From Minisyncoccota bacterium (GTDB taxonomy: Bacteria > Patescibacteriota > Minisyncoccia > Phycocordibacterales > PALSA-1337): a DNA stretch of 64,000 bases. Positions 12,526 through 20,518 of the stretch are shown piece by piece. The notes below the pieces were generated by a model. That model did not search any database and was not told the DNA's origin. It saw nothing but the letters and a program-made list of their open reading frames with translations. Position 1 is the stretch's first letter. Each line of letters starts with the position of its first letter. The stretch spans positions 47,865-111,864 of the forward strand of contig JBAYIX010000001.1 of the NCBI GenBank assembly GCA_041665385.1, written 5' to 3'. Made by a program: the position numbers and the translations under genes.

Positions 12526-14306
12526 TACTCTGTGATTACACGGAGAACTTCCTCTATAGTAGTGAGGCCGGTCACGCATTTGTATATACCATCCTCAAAC
12601 ATTGTGAGCATACCCTCTTTCTTTGCTTGGACCTCTATCTCCGCCGCTGTCGCATCTTTCATAACCATTTCTTTTATTGTCTGGGTCATAAGAAGGACTT
12701 CATGGATACCTATACGACTCTTGTAACCTTCATCGTCTCCGACAGGTGATGCCTTCCAAAAAGGTATCTTGTCCCAGGTATCGCTCGGCTTCACGGCTTT
12801 GTCCGCCTTGAGGGCGGCGAGGACATGATCGAGATCCACCATCTTTTGCAACTGGGCAAACTCGGCCTTGGATAGAAAATATTTTTCTTTTGTCTCAGTA
12901 AGCCTTCGGACGAGCCTCTGGCCGATGACAATATTGAGAGTAGAGACGAGGAGGAAGGATTCTACTTTCATATCGAGGAGACGAGGTATGGCACCTGCAG
13001 CAGAGTTCGTATGCAATGTAGATAGCACCAAGTGACCAGTAAGTGCGGCATTCACACCGAGAGCGGCCGTCTCATTGTCGCGTATCTCACCCACCATGAT
13101 GATATCTGGGTCCTGACGGACGAGAGTGCGTATACCCTGAGCAAAGCTAAAACCAATGTCTGGCTTGACCTGAGTCTGATTTATACGAGCCATCTGGTAT
13201 TCTATAGGATCTTCGATTGTGGAAATGTTCACATCCGGAGTATTGAGGAGATCGAGCATAGTATACAGTGTAGTCGTCTTTCCGGATCCTGTAGGCCCGG
13301 TAGTGAGGATCATGCCCGTGGTCTGCTTTAGTGCCTTGTGAATACGCTCCAGTCCCTCGCCGTGAAAATTTAGATACTCCAATGTAAAACCGGAAATATT
13401 TTCGCGGAGGAGACGCATGACGGTCTTTTCACCGTAATACGTGGGCAATATGGAAACACGAAAAGAAACTTTTTCATTATTCATGTCCACCTTGAATCGT
13501 CCGTCCTGTGGGAGACGCTTCTCATCTAGTTTGAGATTGGAAAGAACCTTGATGCGTGCAGTGATGGATGAACCCGCCTGTTTTGGGAGCACCATAGCGT
13601 CGCGGAGGAGACCGTCTATACGGTAACGGACTAGGACCTGTCCTTCCATCTGCTCTATATGTATGTCAGAAGCATTTTGGAGAATGGCGTGTTTTATGAG
13701 AGTGTCGACTATGCGCACTACCGGCAAATCTGTGGCTATTTTCTTCAAATCCTCCTCGGAAACAGCTTCACCCTTTTCTTCCGATATCATCCTCATAGTC
13801 TCTGTCTCTTTTTGGATGATATCTCCAAACTCGGCTTTCAAACTTTTTTGATATTGCACCAACGCCTCCTTTATGGAGTCCGCATCCGTGAGTCGGGGAA
13901 GGATTTTCAGATTTACTTTCTTTTTTATAAAGTCTATAGCAGAAAGATCATTCACATCGAGCATTGCTACTTCGAGCGAGGTATCGTTTTTCTTGAATGC
14001 GACTATGTTGTGAGTGCGAGCAATAGGTTCCGGTATGAGCGAAAGGGTTTCAAAGGGAGTTTTCTTGCCTTTCAGATCTACGAATGGGATGCCGAGCACA
14101 TAGGCATTCATCCTACGGAGATTGTCCGCGGTGATCTTGCCCTCTGTGACGAGTGTGTCTCCCAGATGTTTGTTATTCTCGTTGGACTCTTTCTTTGCAA
14201 CCTCCAAGTCTTCCTTGGAAACTAGTCCCGAGTCGAGGATAAATTTATAAAGTTGGGTATCCTCAATGAGCATTGCTAGAATTATACCATATGTTATACT
14301 GTCCAC
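12525..14306 (-). CDS. pilB: type IV pilus assembly ATPase PilB (GspE family)
   Basis: N-terminal GspE_N-like domain, Walker A GPTGSGKTTTLY, Asp box and His box, and the tetracysteine region is degenerate. Length 593 aa. Confidence 0.9.
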   Translation of the reverse strand: MDSITYGIILAMLIEDTQLYKFILDSGLVSKEDLEVAKKESNENNKHLGDTLVTEGKITADNLRRMNAYVLGIPFVDLKGKKTPFETLSLIPEPIARTHNIVAFKKNDTSLEVAMLDVNDLSAIDFIKKKVNLKILPRLTDADSIKEALVQYQKSLKAEFGDIIQKETETMRMISEEKGEAVSEEDLKKIATDLPVVRIVDTLIKHAILQNASDIHIEQMEGQVLVRYRIDGLLRDAMVLPKQAGSSITARIKVLSNLKLDEKRLPQDGRFKVDMNNEKVSFRVSILPTYYGEKTVMRLLRENISGFTLEYLNFHGEGLERIHKALKQTTGMILTTGPTGSGKTTTLYTMLDLLNTPDVNISTIEDPIEYQMARINQTQVKPDIGFSFAQGIRTLVRQDPDIIMVGEIRDNETAALGVNAALTGHLVLSTLHTNSAAGAIPRLLDMKVESFLLVSTLNIVIGQRLVRRLTETKEKYFLSKAEFAQLQKMVDLDHVLAALKADKAVKPSDTWDKIPFWKASPVGDDEGYKSRIGIHEVLLMTQTIKEMVMKDATAAEIEVQAKKEGMLTMFEDGIYKCVTGLTTIEEVLRVITE

Positions 14307-14489: not shown

Positions 14490-15650
14490 ATGTTTGACTT
14501 AAAAGTAATCAATTCCGTCGTAGAACAACTCGAAGAAGAGCGCGGTATTCCCCGTGAAAAAACTCTCGAGGCTATTGCCATGTCTCTCGCTACGGCTTAC
14601 AAGAAAGAATTTGGCAAAAAAGGCCAGATAATAAGGGCTTCATTTGACGTGAACAGCGGCCAGGTAGAATTTTGGCAGGTAAAAGTCGTGGTAGACAGGG
14701 ACCAGGTCATCATGGAAGGAGACGAAGAGATGGCTCATGAGGAGATAAAGGATGCAAATGTCGACGATATCAAGATCCGTTTCAACCCGGAACAGCACAT
14801 GCTTTTCGAGGACGCTCAGAAGATAAAGAAGGATGCCGCCATCGGCGACGAGCTGGTATTCCCTCTAGAAGCAAAGGCAGACTTTGGACGCATAGCGGCA
14901 CAGACCGCAAAGCAGGTCATCATCCAAAAGATTCGCGAAGCAGAGAAAACTTCGGTTTTAGGTGAATTTGGCCAGAAGGAGGGCGAAATAGTAGCAGGGA
15001 CAGTAGAACGAGTAGAGAGAGGCGTAGTCTATATCAATATGGGCCGTGCTCTGGGCATGATCCCTTACGAAGAACAGATACCGAGTGAGCGCTGGAAAAC
15101 TGGCGACCGTATCCGTGCATACCTATATGCAGTAGAGGAGTCCCCTCGTGGCATCATGCTAAAGCTTTCCCGTGCTCATCCCAAGTTCCTGTCCAAACTC
15201 TTCGAGACCGAAACTCCGGAAATAGCGGCTGGAACTGTAGAGATCAAGGCCATCGCCCGCGAAGCGGGCTCACGCTCCAAGATCGCTGTCATATCTCACG
15301 ATCCTCATATCGACCCTATCGGTTCCATGGTCGGACAACGTGGGGTGCGTGTCTCGACGGTGACGAGCGAACTTTCTGGCGAAAAAATAGATATAGTAGA
15401 GTGGAATGAAGATCCTGCGCTGTTTATCGAGGAATCTCTCTCCCCTGCGGAAGTCGTCAGTCTGGAATTGATAGACGAAGAACATCGTGCAATTGTGACA
15501 GTGACAGAAGACGAACAATCCCTAGCTATCGGCAAGGGTGGTCAAAATGTCCGCCTCGCGGCCAAACTCACCGGCTGGAAGATAGATATAAAGTCTGCAG
15601 GAGGGAATGCGACTACAGGAGGTGATGAAGAAAAGGAGGCTACGAAATAA
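14490..15650 (+). CDS. nusA: transcription termination/antitermination factor NusA. Start at 14490; the ORF track extends upstream through the hairpin
   Basis: MFDLKVINSVVEQLEEERGIPREKTLEAIAMSLATAYKK, S1 domain and two KH domains (IGKGGQNVRLAAKLTGWKIDI). Confidence 0.9.
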   Translation: MFDLKVINSVVEQLEEERGIPREKTLEAIAMSLATAYKKEFGKKGQIIRASFDVNSGQVEFWQVKVVVDRDQVIMEGDEEMAHEEIKDANVDDIKIRFNPEQHMLFEDAQKIKKDAAIGDELVFPLEAKADFGRIAAQTAKQVIIQKIREAEKTSVLGEFGQKEGEIVAGTVERVERGVVYINMGRALGMIPYEEQIPSERWKTGDRIRAYLYAVEESPRGIMLKLSRAHPKFLSKLFETETPEIAAGTVEIKAIAREAGSRSKIAVISHDPHIDPIGSMVGQRGVRVSTVTSELSGEKIDIVEWNEDPALFIEESLSPAEVVSLELIDEEHRAIVTVTEDEQSLAIGKGGQNVRLAAKLTGWKIDIKSAGGNATTGGDEEKEATK

Positions 15651-15677
15651 GAACGAGTAAGGTTAGAAAGGCAAAAA

Positions 15678-15701
15678 AACCGCAGTAATAGCGGCTTTTT
15701 T
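15678..15701. terminator. weak bidirectional terminator between nusA (+) and the reverse transcriptase gene (-)
   Basis: aaaaaaaccgc-agtaata-gcggctttttt: a 4-bp GC stem flanked by an A-run and a T-run. Confidence 0.35.
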
Positions 15702-15708
15702 GTATGTT

Positions 15709-16719
15709 TTAATTTACTTTTGCTGATGCTTTTTCACGTAGAACTCTGAAACTTAACTTTCGGCAATTTCCATGACTCATTAGCCCTAGATACGAATTTG
15801 CCGACTTCTCTTTCCACTGATTCAAAATCAAATTCCTAAACATTCTTTTCTTGGTTGTTGTTCGCAGAACTCTGTGGTCCGGAAAATGCACCCACCCCAA
15901 AAAATCAACTCCTGAAGCAATCGTGGAAATAGAAACCTTATTTGGATGCATAGTAAGTCTCAACTTCTCTTCTAAAAAAGACTGCATCTTTGGCAAATGG
16001 CTTTCAAGATATGACCTGTTTTGCGACAACACGACAAAATCGTCAGCATAACGAATATAGTATTTTACTTTGAGCTTGTGCTTCACATATTGGTCAAACT
16101 CATTCATGTAGATATTCACGAGAAGTTGCGAGGTGAGGTTGCCGAGTGGGAGACCGACTCCTTTTGTACCAGAGTTGAAACTACTGACGATTTCAGAGAC
16201 GAGCCTCATAATGTCTCGGCCCGGGATATATTTGCCTATAATACTGAGTAGTATCGTCTGATCAATATTCGCAAAAAACTTTTTGATATCGCATTTGAGA
16301 ACCCATGTTGTACGAGTATTATTTTGCGAGACCGAACGAGAAAATTGCTCGAAACGCTTTAGTGCTCGATGTGTGCCCTTTCCGATCTGACATGAATGTG
16401 AATCCGATATAAATGTTTTTTTGAAAAATGGATAGAGAATGCGGTGTAAGGCATGGTTAACAAGCCTGTCTCGAACGCTCGCCTTATGAATATCCCGCGG
16501 CTTTGGGTCAGAAATCCTAAACGCCTGATATGCTGAATGCGAATATGTTTTTGTGGCAAGCTCGTGGTGAAGCAATATTATATTTGTCATCAAATCTCGC
16601 TCAAACCCTTGAACGTCTTTCCGCGCTCGCTTGTCGCACACAAATTCTTTCCATGCCAAAAGAAGATTTTCGAGAGAAATGATATCATTGTATGCATGTT
16701 GAAAAATAATTTTGGACAT
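15709..16719 (-). CDS. reverse transcriptase of a diversity-generating retroelement (DGR)
   Basis: RT motifs including YIRYADDFVVL (YxDD) and GLPLGNLTSQLLVNIYMNEFD. The [ILV]GxxxSQ motif, replacing the usual QGxxxSP, is the DGR-RT signature. Avd and a TR/VR pair lie adjacent. Confidence 0.88.
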   Translation of the reverse strand: MSKIIFQHAYNDIISLENLLLAWKEFVCDKRARKDVQGFERDLMTNIILLHHELATKTYSHSAYQAFRISDPKPRDIHKASVRDRLVNHALHRILYPFFKKTFISDSHSCQIGKGTHRALKRFEQFSRSVSQNNTRTTWVLKCDIKKFFANIDQTILLSIIGKYIPGRDIMRLVSEIVSSFNSGTKGVGLPLGNLTSQLLVNIYMNEFDQYVKHKLKVKYYIRYADDFVVLSQNRSYLESHLPKMQSFLEEKLRLTMHPNKVSISTIASGVDFLGWVHFPDHRVLRTTTKKRMFRNLILNQWKEKSANSYLGLMSHGNCRKLSFRVLREKASAKVN

Positions 16720-17136
16720 AAAGATAGCGTCAGTCAGTCAGTCAGTCAGTCAGTCAGTCAGTCAGTCAGTCAGTCAGTCAAGATTTTACCTGTTCTAAAT
16801 AAGGTAAAGAGTGCTTATCTGACATGGTACAGATTTTATCAAGATCTCCCGAAGACACATAGACATTCTATAGGACAGCGTATCGATACTTTGTTTGTTG
16901 AGCTGATAGAAGCGATATCGGCGGCAAGTTTCTTATCACGTGAGGAGAAACATCCGTATGTCAGACTAGCAATCAAAAAGCTCGATACCCTACGCGTACT
17001 TCTCATGATCCTTTGGGAAATAAAATCTTTTGATGACAAGAAATATATTACCCTTTCTGTAATGATTGATGAGGCTGGAAAAATGCTTGGTGGATGGAAC
17101 GGTCAGCTTACAAAACAAAACTCTCCCAAGAAATAG
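16696..17136 (+). CDS. avd: DGR accessory variability determinant (Avd-like four-helix-bundle protein). Start at ATG 16696 reading through the (GTCA)n tract is an inference
   Basis: The region after the repeat (PKTHRHSIGQRIDTLFVELIEAISAAS...LAIKKLDTLRVLLMILWEIKSFDDKKYITLSVMIDEAGKMLGGWNGQL) parallels Bordetella phage bAvd (PRKHGVAREMFLKCLLGQVELF...QVETAQVLIAEVGRILGSWIARV). There is no in-frame ATG between the repeat and this domain; the nearest upstream ATG is 16696, overlapping the RT start by 24 nt. Confidence 0.7.
   Translation: MLKNNFGHKDSVSQSVSQSVSQSVSQSVKILPVLNKVKSAYLTWYRFYQDLPKTHRHSIGQRIDTLFVELIEAISAASFLSREEKHPYVRLAIKKLDTLRVLLMILWEIKSFDDKKYITLSVMIDEAGKMLGGWNGQLTKQNSPKK
16729..16780. 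repeat. perfect tetranucleotide microsatellite (GTCA)x13
   Basis: gtcagtca... repeated 13 times without interruption. Lies 10-60 nt upstream of the RT start (minus strand) and inside the 5' end of the avd reading frame (plus strand), where it translates as (VSQS)n. Confidence 0.95.
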
Positions 17137-17154
17137 GGAGAGAAATGAAGTGAG

Positions 17155-17255
17155 TTGCGAACACCAGCGAACCACCAGTTGTCGTTCCAGTCGTTGTCGT
17201 TGCGGTTGACGTTCACCTTGCGCTTGTCGTTCCAACGGTTGAACGTGGCGTAGCA
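17155..17255 (-). repeat. DGR template repeat (TR)
   Basis: Non-coding; matches the 3' end of the downstream minus-strand target gene. All mismatches fall at minus-strand adenines of this copy (plus-strand T), e.g. ttg/cgg, tcg/ccg, ttc/agc. Blocks of 24, 18 and 18 nt are identical. Confidence 0.85.
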
Positions 17256-17642
17256 TTGTATGGAGTCTCGTCTATTTCACTGCCCCTCGAATACTCTCAG
17301 AGCTGTATCGAATCCGGCATCTCATTCAGCAGAATGACCTACTGGGTTTATGCCTTAAAACTCCATACCAAGTAGCTTCATTTTTTTGAAGTGTCTGCAT
17401 GCACCACCCTATCCAAAGCCTCATTTAGCAAAATGACCACTGGGTTGACCGTGGATACTCTCGATGCATGGATACTGGTTTCGGTAGCGGGAAGCCGTAA
17501 CCGCCCGCATATTCACCTACTGCCGGAATAAGTATAACTGGTTTTATATAAAAAAATTAGCCCCACATCCAAAATTAATTGAATGCAGGGCTAAGGACCA
17601 AGTTTCTAAGGACCGGAGTCCAAAGCGACTTAGTGTTGAGAA

Positions 17643-18275
17643 CTACTTGCGAACACCAGCGAACCACCAGCGGCCGAGCCAGCCGCCGCCCCAGCCGTCG
17701 CCGTTGCGGTTGACGTTCACCAGGCGCCCGCCGTCCCAACGGTTGAACGTGGCGAAGCACCAGTTGCCTTTGGCATCTTTCCAATGAGTGCCGTGGGGCT
17801 TCTCATCGGCGAAGGCGGGATCGGCTTCATTCACGGCGGCGACAGAGATCGGATCGACGGGCTTGAGACCACGCAGTTCGAACTCTTTTTCGAGGTCGTC
17901 ATCGGAGATGAAACCATTGCGGTTCGAGAGGTCGGGTTTGAAGAACACAACCTCGACTTCGTCGCCTTCACCTTTCGGCATCGCATCCACGACCTTGCGG
18001 TCCGTGTACTGCGCGCGGCCGGTGGCCTCGATCGCCTCTTGCGGAAAGCGACTACGATTCACCTTGATGGTGCGGACGATGAGGTTCGAGACCGCTTCAG
18101 CGCGTTCGCAGAAGGGCGTAAACATCATCATTCCGAGATTCTCGACGCCGAGAACCTGTTGAGCGACGTCCGAGGTGATCGAGGAGCGATGCTTGCGCAT
18201 CGCGTCGCGGAGTTTGTTGACGGCATTTTCGATTTGGCCGTCGGTCATTTCGGCTGCAGTCATGATCTGTGTCAT
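17643..18275 (-). CDS. DGR variable (target) protein with a C-terminal variable region, probably C-type lectin / FGE-like fold
   Basis: 210 aa. C-terminus ...HGTHWKDAKGNWCFATFNRWDGGRLVNVNRNGDGWGGGWLGRWWFAGVRK is encoded by the VR. GC content is visibly higher than surrounding genes. No obvious signal peptide. Confidence 0.75.
   Translation of the reverse strand: MTQIMTAAEMTDGQIENAVNKLRDAMRKHRSSITSDVAQQVLGVENLGMMMFTPFCERAEAVSNLIVRTIKVNRSRFPQEAIEATGRAQYTDRKVVDAMPKGEGDEVEVVFFKPDLSNRNGFISDDDLEKEFELRGLKPVDPISVAAVNEADPAFADEKPHGTHWKDAKGNWCFATFNRWDGGRLVNVNRNGDGWGGGWLGRWWFAGVRK
17647..17759 (-). repeat. DGR variable repeat (VR) at the 3' end of the target gene
   Basis: Direct repeat of the TR with substitutions only at TR adenines. 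It is 12 nt longer than the TR, with a (ccg/cag) expansion. It ends 1 nt from the target stop codon. The 24-nt identical 3' block ttgcgaacaccagcgaaccaccag is an IMH-like GC-rich segment. Confidence 0.85.
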
Positions 18276-18496
18276 GGTGTCATCCTTTCTTTTTGATTTC
18301 GACTTATATGTAAGAACTGTTCACAATAATTATACTCCTATTATCACCCATTGTCAATAGCTCCCGGTCCTGCCAAAATACCCCTATATTAAGCCCCAAT
18401 CATTGCATATTTGGCCCTTTTTTATTAGAATGCGCACATTGACAATTATTAGAAGGAAGACTAAAAGCCTCCCAAAAAGGGAGTAATAATACCAAA

Positions 18497-20518
18497 ATGA
18501 GCCCTTATATATGGTTCGCACTTATAAGTTCCGTAATCGCTATAGCATACGGCGCTTTTTTGATCACATCGATCTTGAAGAAGCCCACAGGCAATGACCG
18601 CATGAGAGAGATAGCCGCCGCCATCCAGGCAGGCGCAAAGGCGTATCTCAATCGCCAATATCGAACCATCGCCGTCATAGCAGTCATCCTATTCCTAATA
18701 CTCGGCTTTTTCCTAGGCTGGTCCATAGGCATAGGGTTCCTGGTAGGTGCTATCCTCTCTGCGCTTACAGGTTATATCGGTATGAATATATCGGTACGAA
18801 CAAACATAAGGACAGCCGAAGCAGCGAGGAGTGGCTTGGCTGAAGCTCTCTCTCTGGCATTCAAAGGCGGATCTGTGACCGGATTCTTCGTAGTTGGCTT
18901 GGCTCTCCTCGGAGTCACAGGCTTTTATGCCATCACAAAAGATGTAAACTCTCTCATCGGTTTGGCATTCGGAGCGAGTCTTATATCGATATTCGCCCGC
19001 CTAGGCGGAGGCATATTCACAAAGGCCGCTGATGTCGGCACCGATCTCGTAGGCAAATTAGAAGCAGGCATACCTGAAGATGATCCCAGAAACCCTGGTG
19101 TTATCGCAGACAACGTAGGCGACAATGTAGGAGACTGTGCTGGCATGGCAGCAGACTTGTTCGAGACCTATGCCGTCACCACCATAGCAGCCATGATACT
19201 CGGCGCGGTCACCTTCACACAGACTCTCGACGTTTCTGGTGTTGCAGTCAACGCAGTATTTGCAAATGCAACCATTTATCCTCTCGCTATAGGAGGTGTC
19301 GCCATCATCGCTTCTATCATAGGTACCTGGTTCGTAAAGCTCGGAAAAAGTGGAAACATAATGGGTGCAATGTACAAAGGACTCATAGCGGCTGGTGTCA
19401 TTTCTGCCATCGCTTTCTACCCCCTCACCATGGAACTCATGGCTGACAACAAACTCTACGATCCTACGAACTTGTACTACGCAACACTCGTCGGACTTCT
19501 CGTGACCGCAGCATTGGTATATATAACTGAATACTACACCTCCACCAAGTATCACCCAGTGCAATCCATAGCAAACGCGAGCGTTTCTGGTCACGGTACG
19601 AACATCATTCAGGGTCTGGCAATATCCATGAAAGCTACAGCATGGCCTACTCTGAGCATCGTTGCTGGAATATTGGCTGCATATCACTTCGGCGGACTCT
19701 ACGGTATAGCTATAGCCGCTATGAGTATGCTCTCTATGGCAGGTATCATAGTCGCTATCGACTCTTACGGTCCTATCACTGACAATGCCGGAGGCATAGC
19801 AGAGATGGCAGAACTACCAAAGGAGGTCCGTGATGTCACTGACCCATTGGATGCAGTCGGTAATACCACAAAAGCGGTCACAAAAGGATATGCCATCGGT
19901 TCCGCAGGGTTGGCGGCTCTGGTACTCTTTGCTTCCTATACAGAAGCAGTCGGTTCCGGGCACAGCTTTAGCCTCAATGATCCCGAAGTTATCGTCGGAT
20001 TGTTCATCGGAGGACTATTGCCTTACTATTTCGCAGCTCTCTGCATGGAAGCCGTAGGAAAAGCGGCTGGAAAAGTAGTAGAAGAAGTCAGGAGACAGTT
20101 CCGCGAGATCAAAGGCATCATGGATGGCTCTGCAAAGCCAGACTACAGCCGTGCGGTAGATATCGTGACTTCTGCAGCTATCAAGGAAATGATAGTTCCT
20201 GCTCTCATACCGGTTCTAGCACCTATATTGGTCGGATTTATACTCGGCCCAGTCGCTCTCGGAGGTTTGCTCGTCGGTTCCATTGTGACAGGCCTATTCG
20301 TAGCACTTTCTATGACTTCCGGAGGAGGAGCATGGGATAATGCAAAGAAACACATAGAGCAAGGTGCTCATGGAGGCAAGGGTTCGGATGCTCACAAAGC
20401 CGCTGTTACTGGCGACACCGTTGGAGATCCTTACAAAGACACAGCTGGCCCAGCCATAAACCCTATGATCAAGATCTTGAACATTGTGGCCCTGCTCATC
20501 GTCGCTTTCATTATTTAA
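18497..20518 (+). CDS. hppA: membrane-bound proton/sodium-translocating pyrophosphatase
   Basis: 673 aa polytopic membrane protein with [39 protein letters not shown] and [17 protein letters not shown] signature motifs. Confidence 0.9.

Follow-up and report, generated by a model that had tools for sequence, protein, structure and literature searches.

Does a perfect tetranucleotide repeat between two divergent genes of a diversity-generating retroelement (DGR) act as a switch for the element's mutagenic activity? We address this question in a 64-kb stretch of the Minisyncoccota bacterium contig JBAYIX010000001.1 (64,000 nucleotides, hereafter the window), in which a (GTCA)13 tract sits where the gene for the DGR reverse transcriptase (RT) and avd, the gene for the accessory protein Avd, begin head to head. 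A DGR that is always on keeps overwriting a target protein that already works, and to our knowledge the regulation of DGRs is largely unknown. An earlier note on this DNA had put the tract forward as a contingency switch, and our comparison with related loci supports that idea through the position of the repeat, through the tract being the only indel between contigs that match everywhere else, and through reading frames that are random where a repeat is present and fixed where it is absent. We consider it probable, from these sequence comparisons, that slipped-strand changes make the tract a contingency switch for Avd translation, which would gate mutagenic retrohoming.

A Perfect Tetranucleotide Repeat Lies within the avd Reading Frame

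The tract was recovered by Tandem Repeats Finder (TRF) with a period of 4, 13.0 copies, 100% matches and no indels over 52 nt, and direct reading of the sequence agreed, so that the coordinates and the 13 perfect units given by the earlier note stand. It is the sole microsatellite of the window, in which our own repeat scan otherwise returned only four A8/T8 runs. Chance does not account for the tract, because 48 further bases must match after the first GTCA unit (a probability of about 4^-48 per site), and its 13 perfect units exceed the length at which slippage becomes frequent in contingency loci. On the minus strand only 9 nt (16720–16728) separate it from the RT ATG, bearing out its described placement close upstream of the RT start, and the variable repeat (VR) of the DGR target gene is only ~900 nt away. 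The RT cannot start farther upstream, because all frames of (TGAC)n are interrupted by TGA.

An open reading frame (ORF; 16537–17136) of the plus strand runs across the tract, which codes for (VSQS)4V, and ATG 16696 is the only canonical in-frame entry into the Avd domain, both as previously proposed. We infer that this ATG is used as the Avd start, which gives a predicted N-terminal peptide of MLKNNFGHKDSVSQS... The product is identified as a DGR Avd by the Pfam bAvd profile (3.6e-11, 44 bits, cut-off 40) and also matches NCBIfam DivGenRetAVD (2.2e-18, 66.5 bits, under the equivalog cut-off of 80) over residues 31–134, an alignment that begins two residues past the tract-encoded segment. Gene callers likewise report the 146-residue Avd in two other assemblies of this locus (L002 and L003). 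Between the tract and the Avd core of the window, where the codons read AAG ATT TTA CCT GTT, there is no ATG, GTG or TTG, and the subgroup to which the window belongs has no canonical start 3' of the tract, the core codon being TTA and not TTG. A non-triplet unit therefore stands between the start codon and the functional domain: in silico, 10, 13 and 16 units are in frame with ATG 16696, and products of 32, 146 and 36 residues result from 12, 13 and 14 units, respectively, confirming that one unit gained or lost shifts the Avd frame.

The two coding starts overlap in a shared codon register, and each start codon is antisense to codon 8 of the other gene: the Avd ATG (Met1) to a His codon of the RT (CAT), and the RT ATG (Met1) to a His codon of Avd (CAT).

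In the mechanism that we propose, Avd would be translated from ATG 16696, within the first 8 codons of the divergent RT gene and probably from a leaderless mRNA, and translation would have to cross (GTCA)n to reach the four-helix-bundle domain. Replication slippage would alter the unit number, leaving the frame open at 10, 13 or 16 units and cutting the product to 32–36 residues when one unit is gained or lost. The OFF phase should stop VR diversification and the ON phase resume it, and the result would be heritable, reversible ON and OFF sub-populations for retrohoming into the VR of the adjacent target. Avd is presumably required here by analogy with the Bordetella phage DGR, for which Avd is reported to be needed together with the RT for adenine-mutagenic cDNA synthesis (PMC6182149).

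Non-Triplet Repeats Occupy the Same Site in Related Elements

To place the tract in context, we analyzed 160 related loci (80 from metagenomes and 80 from GTDB species representatives), drawn from 507 metagenome and 291 genome relatives detected and nearly all labelled as metagenome-assembled genomes (MAGs) of Patescibacteria, the candidate phyla radiation (CPR). At each locus the RT ATG and the Avd core codons (K/R-I/L-L-P-V) were located and the gap between them was measured. RT and avd are divergent in 150 of the 160 loci, with a gap of typically ~13–84 nt that is almost wholly simple repeat. Among 133 non-redundant loci, 101 carry a simple repeat in this gap of ~40 nt, comprising 73 poly-C tracts (at least 8 nt) and 19 tetranucleotide, 5 heptanucleotide and 4 dinucleotide repeats. 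The summed gap sequence of the 133 loci is 5.5 kb, giving a repeat density of ~18 per kb, versus 0.013 per kb in the 626 kb of flanking sequence from the same loci, where we found 8 non-A/T repeats (one of them poly-G), no poly-C and no tetranucleotide repeat.

The units at this site are diverse. Tetranucleotide tracts in the relatives consist of (GTCA)/(TCAG)/(CAGT) with 5–13 units, (GCCA) with 8–17, (CAAT) with 7–10, (CAAC) with 3–13 and (ACGA) with 9, and the heptanucleotides are (AGCAATC) with 3–11 units, (ACCATCA) with 6 and (GCCAGCC) with 6.6; most of the more distant members have poly-C of 7–13 nt. Compound or long dinucleotide tracts, namely (CA)8-12(AG)10, (GA)6.5 and (GA)19, occur at L054/L055, L140 and L164. 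The Avd homologues accordingly show, at the tract position, peptides that only non-triplet repeats can yield, such as ASQPASQP, NQSINQSI, TNQPTNQ and 7-residue periods. Every unit observed is stop-free on the Avd sense strand. Read in that direction, the homopolymers are without exception runs of C (73 C, 0 G), which supply proline codons matching the PP-containing linker of repeat-free relatives.

A conserved position combined with a changing unit is the pattern expected if mutability itself were maintained. The earlier note had named comparison with orthologous DGRs as a check on its idea, and the comparison strongly favors a contingency switch, given same-position non-triplet or homopolymer repeats of differing units in 101 of 133 loci. 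Judged on this distribution, the design is common to a large clade of Patescibacteria DGRs, built with whatever non-triplet or homopolymer repeat arose. No repeat was found upstream of avd in 66 canonical phage DGRs that encode avd and RT on the same strand. In the CAAT/CAAC subgroup (L010, L012, L013 and L101), a second ATG in another frame follows just past the RT start ('CAT A ATG GTG GCA ATC...'), so two of the three phases could be translated there.

Tract Length Differs between Otherwise Identical Loci

For a comparison of tract lengths, loci were clustered by 750 nt of flanking sequence at no less than 97% identity. Seven groups contain loci from different samples with flanks 99.9–100% identical and tracts of unequal length: (TCAG)7 versus 5 units in L021/L023, (CA)8 versus 12 in L054/L055, C9 versus C10 in L038/L051, C8 versus C9 in L062/L065, C9 versus C10 in L069/L082, C10 versus C9 in L072/L075 and C10 versus C9 in L077/L081. 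For L038/L051 and L072/L075 the tract is the sole difference, with 0 mismatches in 1157 nt and 2384 nt, respectively. Length differences were never seen in the repeat-free clusters.

The pair L069 and L082, which come from different samples, is 99.4% identical over 4 kb, and 15 of its 21 substitutions are confined to the VR (L069 1548–1635). At the sequence level this comparison shows natural recent DGR activity in the clade, and the coincidence of C9/C10 with the VR substitutions implies that the DGR is active, and the tract changes, over one and the same short timescale.

An assembly or sequencing artefact is one rival account of the tract. Short-k assemblies do break at the site: exact-protein look-ups of the RT and target recovered three further contigs of the window's locus, one of which (L001, from Logan) stops within the tract, and among the relatives L009 begins inside its repeat and L084 has an N-gap beside the tract. 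Yet the identical 13-unit tract and flanks are present in the window, in an ENA contig (L002) and in a JGI contig (L003), tracts of this kind recur in over 100 assemblies made independently in many projects, and differences of 2 to 4 whole units are unlike homopolymer errors. We therefore regard an artefact as highly improbable.

Contigs that end in the tract or are adjoined there by an N-gap were noted for L001, L009, L031 and L084, and gene callers at such loci truncate Avd (103–121 residues) or shorten the RT (316 residues in L002). The annotation and assembly problem is systematic for this DGR clade, with avd truncated or missed in out-of-frame alleles.

Reading Frame Is Random with a Repeat and Fixed without One

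For the frame statistics, loci were grouped into lineages at 95% identity. Of the 108 repeat-bearing lineages, 37 (one third) have a gap length divisible by 3, and 45 have an in-frame upstream ATG (ON), the rest being OFF. Among repeat-free lineages, in contrast, the gap is in frame in 13 of 17 (p=3e-4 versus one third), and an in-frame upstream ATG is present in 14 of 17 (Fisher p=0.003). Frame thus matters, because lineages without a repeat are held in frame.

A sister clade (L166–L177), recovered from viral contigs in IMG/VR with Avd proteins 29–43% identical, served as an outgroup. Its 12 DGRs share the divergent, overlapping RT/avd layout and carry no repeat at the avd start, and all 12 have an in-frame upstream ATG, as in the start ATG CCA GAT TCT CAT, in which CAT is the antisense of the RT ATG. 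Together, these data indicate that translation of Avd enters from upstream and crosses the gap, and that the ancestral state was a fixed in-frame linker which the repeat clade made hypermutable. The viral classification of the sister-clade contigs hints that the layout may have a phage origin.

The RT codon opposite the Avd start carries a matching signature. In the relatives, RT codon 8 is CAT in 73 cases and CAC in 1, although CAT makes up 63% of the remaining His codons of these RT genes (p=4e-14); by this codon bias, the Avd ATG is protected. A subclade without RT His8 has CATATG instead, still upstream of the tract. At OFF loci the Avd core ORF is intact in 68 of 68 cases and the RT is intact in most, and by that measure the out-of-frame alleles are not decaying; the family holds both ON and OFF alleles of an otherwise intact gene.

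The same data bear on the possibility that the repeats are a neutral by-product in an unconstrained Pro/Gln/Ser-rich linker, with no selected switching and with OFF alleles tolerated through alternative initiation, transcriptional or ribosomal slippage, or Avd dispensability. Repeat lineages are in frame exactly as often as neutrality predicts (one third), a TTG directly follows the tract at many poly-C loci, and homopolymers of at least 9 nt permit transcriptional slippage in other systems. Neutrality would nevertheless have to produce a more than 1000-fold enrichment at one 40-nt site, with at least ten units in many lineages, which is hard to obtain without selection for mutability. Triplet repeats, the neutral choice for a linker, are essentially absent, the units being 1, 2, 4 or 7 nt long; moreover, repeat-free lineages have kept their frame, the window's subgroup has no alternative start, and we know of no tetranucleotide tract that serves as a substrate for transcriptional slippage. 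We therefore consider the neutral account unlikely.

Putative Expression Signals around the Tract

Shine-Dalgarno sequences are rare in the window, where 9 of 46 long ORFs match even a loose pattern. In 14 of 41 long ORFs, a -10-like TAnnnT motif precedes the start codon by 5–9 nt, versus 8% of all ATGs, which suggests that leaderless mRNAs are frequent in this CPR genome; one example is TATAAT-N7-ATG ahead of a pilB-like gene at 14273. The element TGATATCAT is placed accordingly before ATG 16696 (Table 1). All 73 relatives with this avd ATG have TAnnnT 5–8 nt upstream. This conservation is not independent support, because the region is also constrained by the RT N-terminus.

On the opposite strand, TAAAAT immediately upstream of the tract might, tentatively, be the RT -10, and GGTAnnnT is retained here in the tetranucleotide subgroup. 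The tract would then form part of the 5' leader of the RT, and for that reason may affect the RT as well. If the leader does include the tract, the avd and RT mRNAs would be complementary at their 5' ends, and antisense or polymerase-collision effects could follow. An RT leader of this kind folds no better than shuffled sequences (z=0.34), and Rfam gave no match in 15500–18500 at E<=1. A generic promoter and terminator scan (sigma-70) of 16400–17400 called no promoter at the tract; it returned two unrelated matches at shuffle expectation and one hairpin after the template repeat (TR). The combination of TGAC units as a -35 with TATCTT as a -10 was rejected, as transcription would start inside the RT ORF.

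The poly-C relatives present a different layout. On the RT strand, TAnnnT-N7-ATG follows the G-run in 20 of 39 of them (about half), with TGGCAA or TGGTAA before it, so that the pattern TGGCAA/TGGTAA - N6-8 - G8-10 - TAnnnT - N7 - ATG places poly-G in a 15–18-nt spacer; for a gap of 24, at which Avd is in frame, this spacer measures 17 nt. In these members the tract may additionally set RT promoter spacing.

This arrangement, together with the 9 nt between the tract and the RT ATG and the leaderless-type starts common in this genome, gives some substance to the view that the tract acts mainly on the RT, through its promoter or 5' leader, with length changes of the porA/opc kind tuning its transcription or translation, and that the Avd frame is incidental. 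The window does not fit such a scheme: a TAnnnT hexamer between the tract and the RT ATG is found in 0 of 28 multi-nucleotide-repeat loci, the window included, a 52-nt tract is too long for a -35/-10 spacer, and a repeat lying between -35 and -10 would be compatible with the poly-C relatives only. An action on the RT would also leave unexplained the in-frame gap and conserved ATG of the repeat-free lineages and sister clade, the stop-free units and invariable C homopolymer on the Avd strand, and the lack of structure predicted for the leader. As the principal mechanism it is thus improbable; it is more plausible as an extra in the poly-C subgroup than as the sole mechanism. We lean slightly towards a wider form of the Avd switch, in which the CPR DGR clade would have evolved a built-in contingency switch and a single tract in the avd/RT overlap would co-ordinate both genes, through the Avd frame and through the RT leader or promoter spacing.

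Evidence That Weighs against the Proposed Switch

Several observations count against a switch on Avd translation. Avd is known to be required in the DGR of the Bordetella phage, which lies outside this clade. The one-third in-frame fraction of repeat-bearing lineages is also expected if frame is irrelevant, and ~60% of poly-C relatives have TTG as core codon 3, from which a short Avd could be translated in any phase (the window has TTA). Because the N-terminal leader overlaps RT coding sequence, its conservation at the protein level is not independent evidence, and the promoter assignments are pattern matches only, which the generic scan did not call. Finally, the ENA and JGI contigs have flanks identical to the window and 13 units each, so all three full assemblies of the locus, which may not be independent, agree in length. 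The length heterogeneity sought by the earlier note is consequently shown for the family, by the seven identical-flank groups, and not for this genome, since L001 breaks within the tract and the remaining assemblies all have 13 units.

The Tract Belongs to a Complete DGR

The element is a bona fide, complete DGR, and its parts are listed in Table 1. Hundreds of RT homologues at 64–77% identity come from Patescibacteria MAGs, and homologues and neighbouring genes alike point to a host within the Patescibacteria/CPR; against NCBIfam, the closest models for the RT (group II RT and others) all scored under their cut-offs. TR and VR differ by 17 substitutions inside the repeat, all of them at TR adenines (minus strand) and none at other bases. 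The greater length of the VR reflects an in-frame indel of 12 nt inside the repeat, in a locally repetitive CCAGC/CGNC stretch. The target protein has no Pfam or NCBIfam match.

On the minus strand, the order is target-VR, TR, inverted avd and RT, which is an unusual layout in which antisense avd occupies the place of the usual TR-to-RT spacer. The hairpin directly after the TR might terminate a short TR RNA or form a structured element of the DGR RNA.

Table 1. Coordinates of the DGR and of the candidate control elements around its repeat tract (positions are those of the window).
Feature	Position	Strand	Basis or remark
DGR reverse transcriptase, 336 aa	15709..16719	-	RVT_1 3.3e-25; LGNLTSQ and YADD in the translation
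TGATATCAT, extended -10-like element	16680..16688	+	7 nt before ATG 16696; candidate promoter of a leaderless avd transcript
avd and RT coding starts, overlapping head to head by 24 nt	16696..16719		Sequence
avd ORF, 146 aa	16696..17136	+	11-aa N-terminal leader; 17 repeat-encoded residues, (VSQS)4V; four-helix-bundle core from ~residue 29-31
(GTCA)13 simple sequence repeat	16729..16780		TRF and sequence; (TGAC)13 on the RT strand; proposed slipped-strand switch
TAAAAT, possible RT -10	16783..16788	-	Antisense of ATT TTA in avd; adjoins the tract on its upstream side
Terminator-like GC hairpin and T-run	17121..17142	-	Directly after the TR; overlaps the avd stop codon
Template repeat (TR), 101 nt	17155..17255	-	Aligned to the VR
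DGR target gene, 210 aa, C-terminal VR	17643..18275	-	ORF
Variable repeat (VR)	17647..17759	-	At the 3' end of the target ORF; exceeds the TR by 12 nt

Significance of the Proposed DGR Switch

If the switch operates as proposed, a reversible and heritable OFF state would resolve the trade-off between exploring variants and keeping a good one. It would amount to second-order control of evolvability, by which a lineage locks a useful receptor variant and later resumes diversification; switching may in this way have adaptive value. It would also be the first case that we could find of slipped-strand phase variation controlling retroelement-based mutagenesis, and contingency loci would no longer be a matter of host-adapted pathogens but would reach into environmental ultra-small bacteria. 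The switch could also be adopted in engineered DGR diversifiers.

Repeats at avd go unmentioned in a DGR survey with 126 CPR members (PMC5758913), as do retroelements in a 2025 phase-variation review (PMC11868660). Our full-text literature search, which included a paper on DGR immunity (PMC10053308), found no link of DGRs or Avd to simple-repeat phase variation; subscription papers fall mostly outside such a search, and the absence is not proof. Within the literature searched, no prior description contradicts the earlier note, which knew of no such repeat described as gating a DGR. As far as we can tell, a DGR accessory protein as the gated function and the environmental CPR setting are both new.

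Comparison with Known Contingency Systems

The closest likeness is to Haemophilus influenzae, in which lic1A (CAAT)n and mod (AGTC)n/(AGCC)n have a long perfect tetranucleotide tract just past the start codon, where a change of unit number shifts the frame. The unit classes are shared, GTCA being a rotation of AGTC and GCCA a rotation of AGCC, with CAAT common to both. As in lic1A, ATGs in two frames precede the tract in some relatives (the CAAT/CAAC subgroup), and tract length varies among near-identical strains in Haemophilus as it does among near-identical loci here. Unlike Haemophilus, the hosts are environmental Patescibacteria and not host-adapted pathogens, and the gated gene would encode an accessory subunit of a retroelement mutagenesis machine instead of a surface or modification enzyme. 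The tract here is also part of the presumed leader of the RT gene, which is divergent and overlaps avd, and switching is predicted from sequence.

Promoter-spacer variation of the kind known for Neisseria porA and opc is resembled by the poly-C relatives only, with G8-10 between putative -35-like and -10-like elements in spacers of 15–18 nt; the window differs in its 52-nt tract and in having no -10 between tract and RT ATG. The DGR itself resembles that of Bordetella phage BPP-1 (mtd-VR, avd, TR, brt) in the RT motif [I/L]GxxxSQ, in the Avd four-helix bundle, in adenine-specific TR/VR differences and in the location of variation at the target C-terminus. Unlike BPP-1, avd is here inverted, overlaps the RT start head to head by 24 nt and carries a hypermutable repeat in its 5' coding region. 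In concept, the arrangement is also akin to the phasevarions of phase-variable Type III mod genes, in which a simple repeat switches a gene with many downstream phenotypes, with the difference that the outcome here would be sequence diversity in one target protein and not a methylation-dependent regulon.

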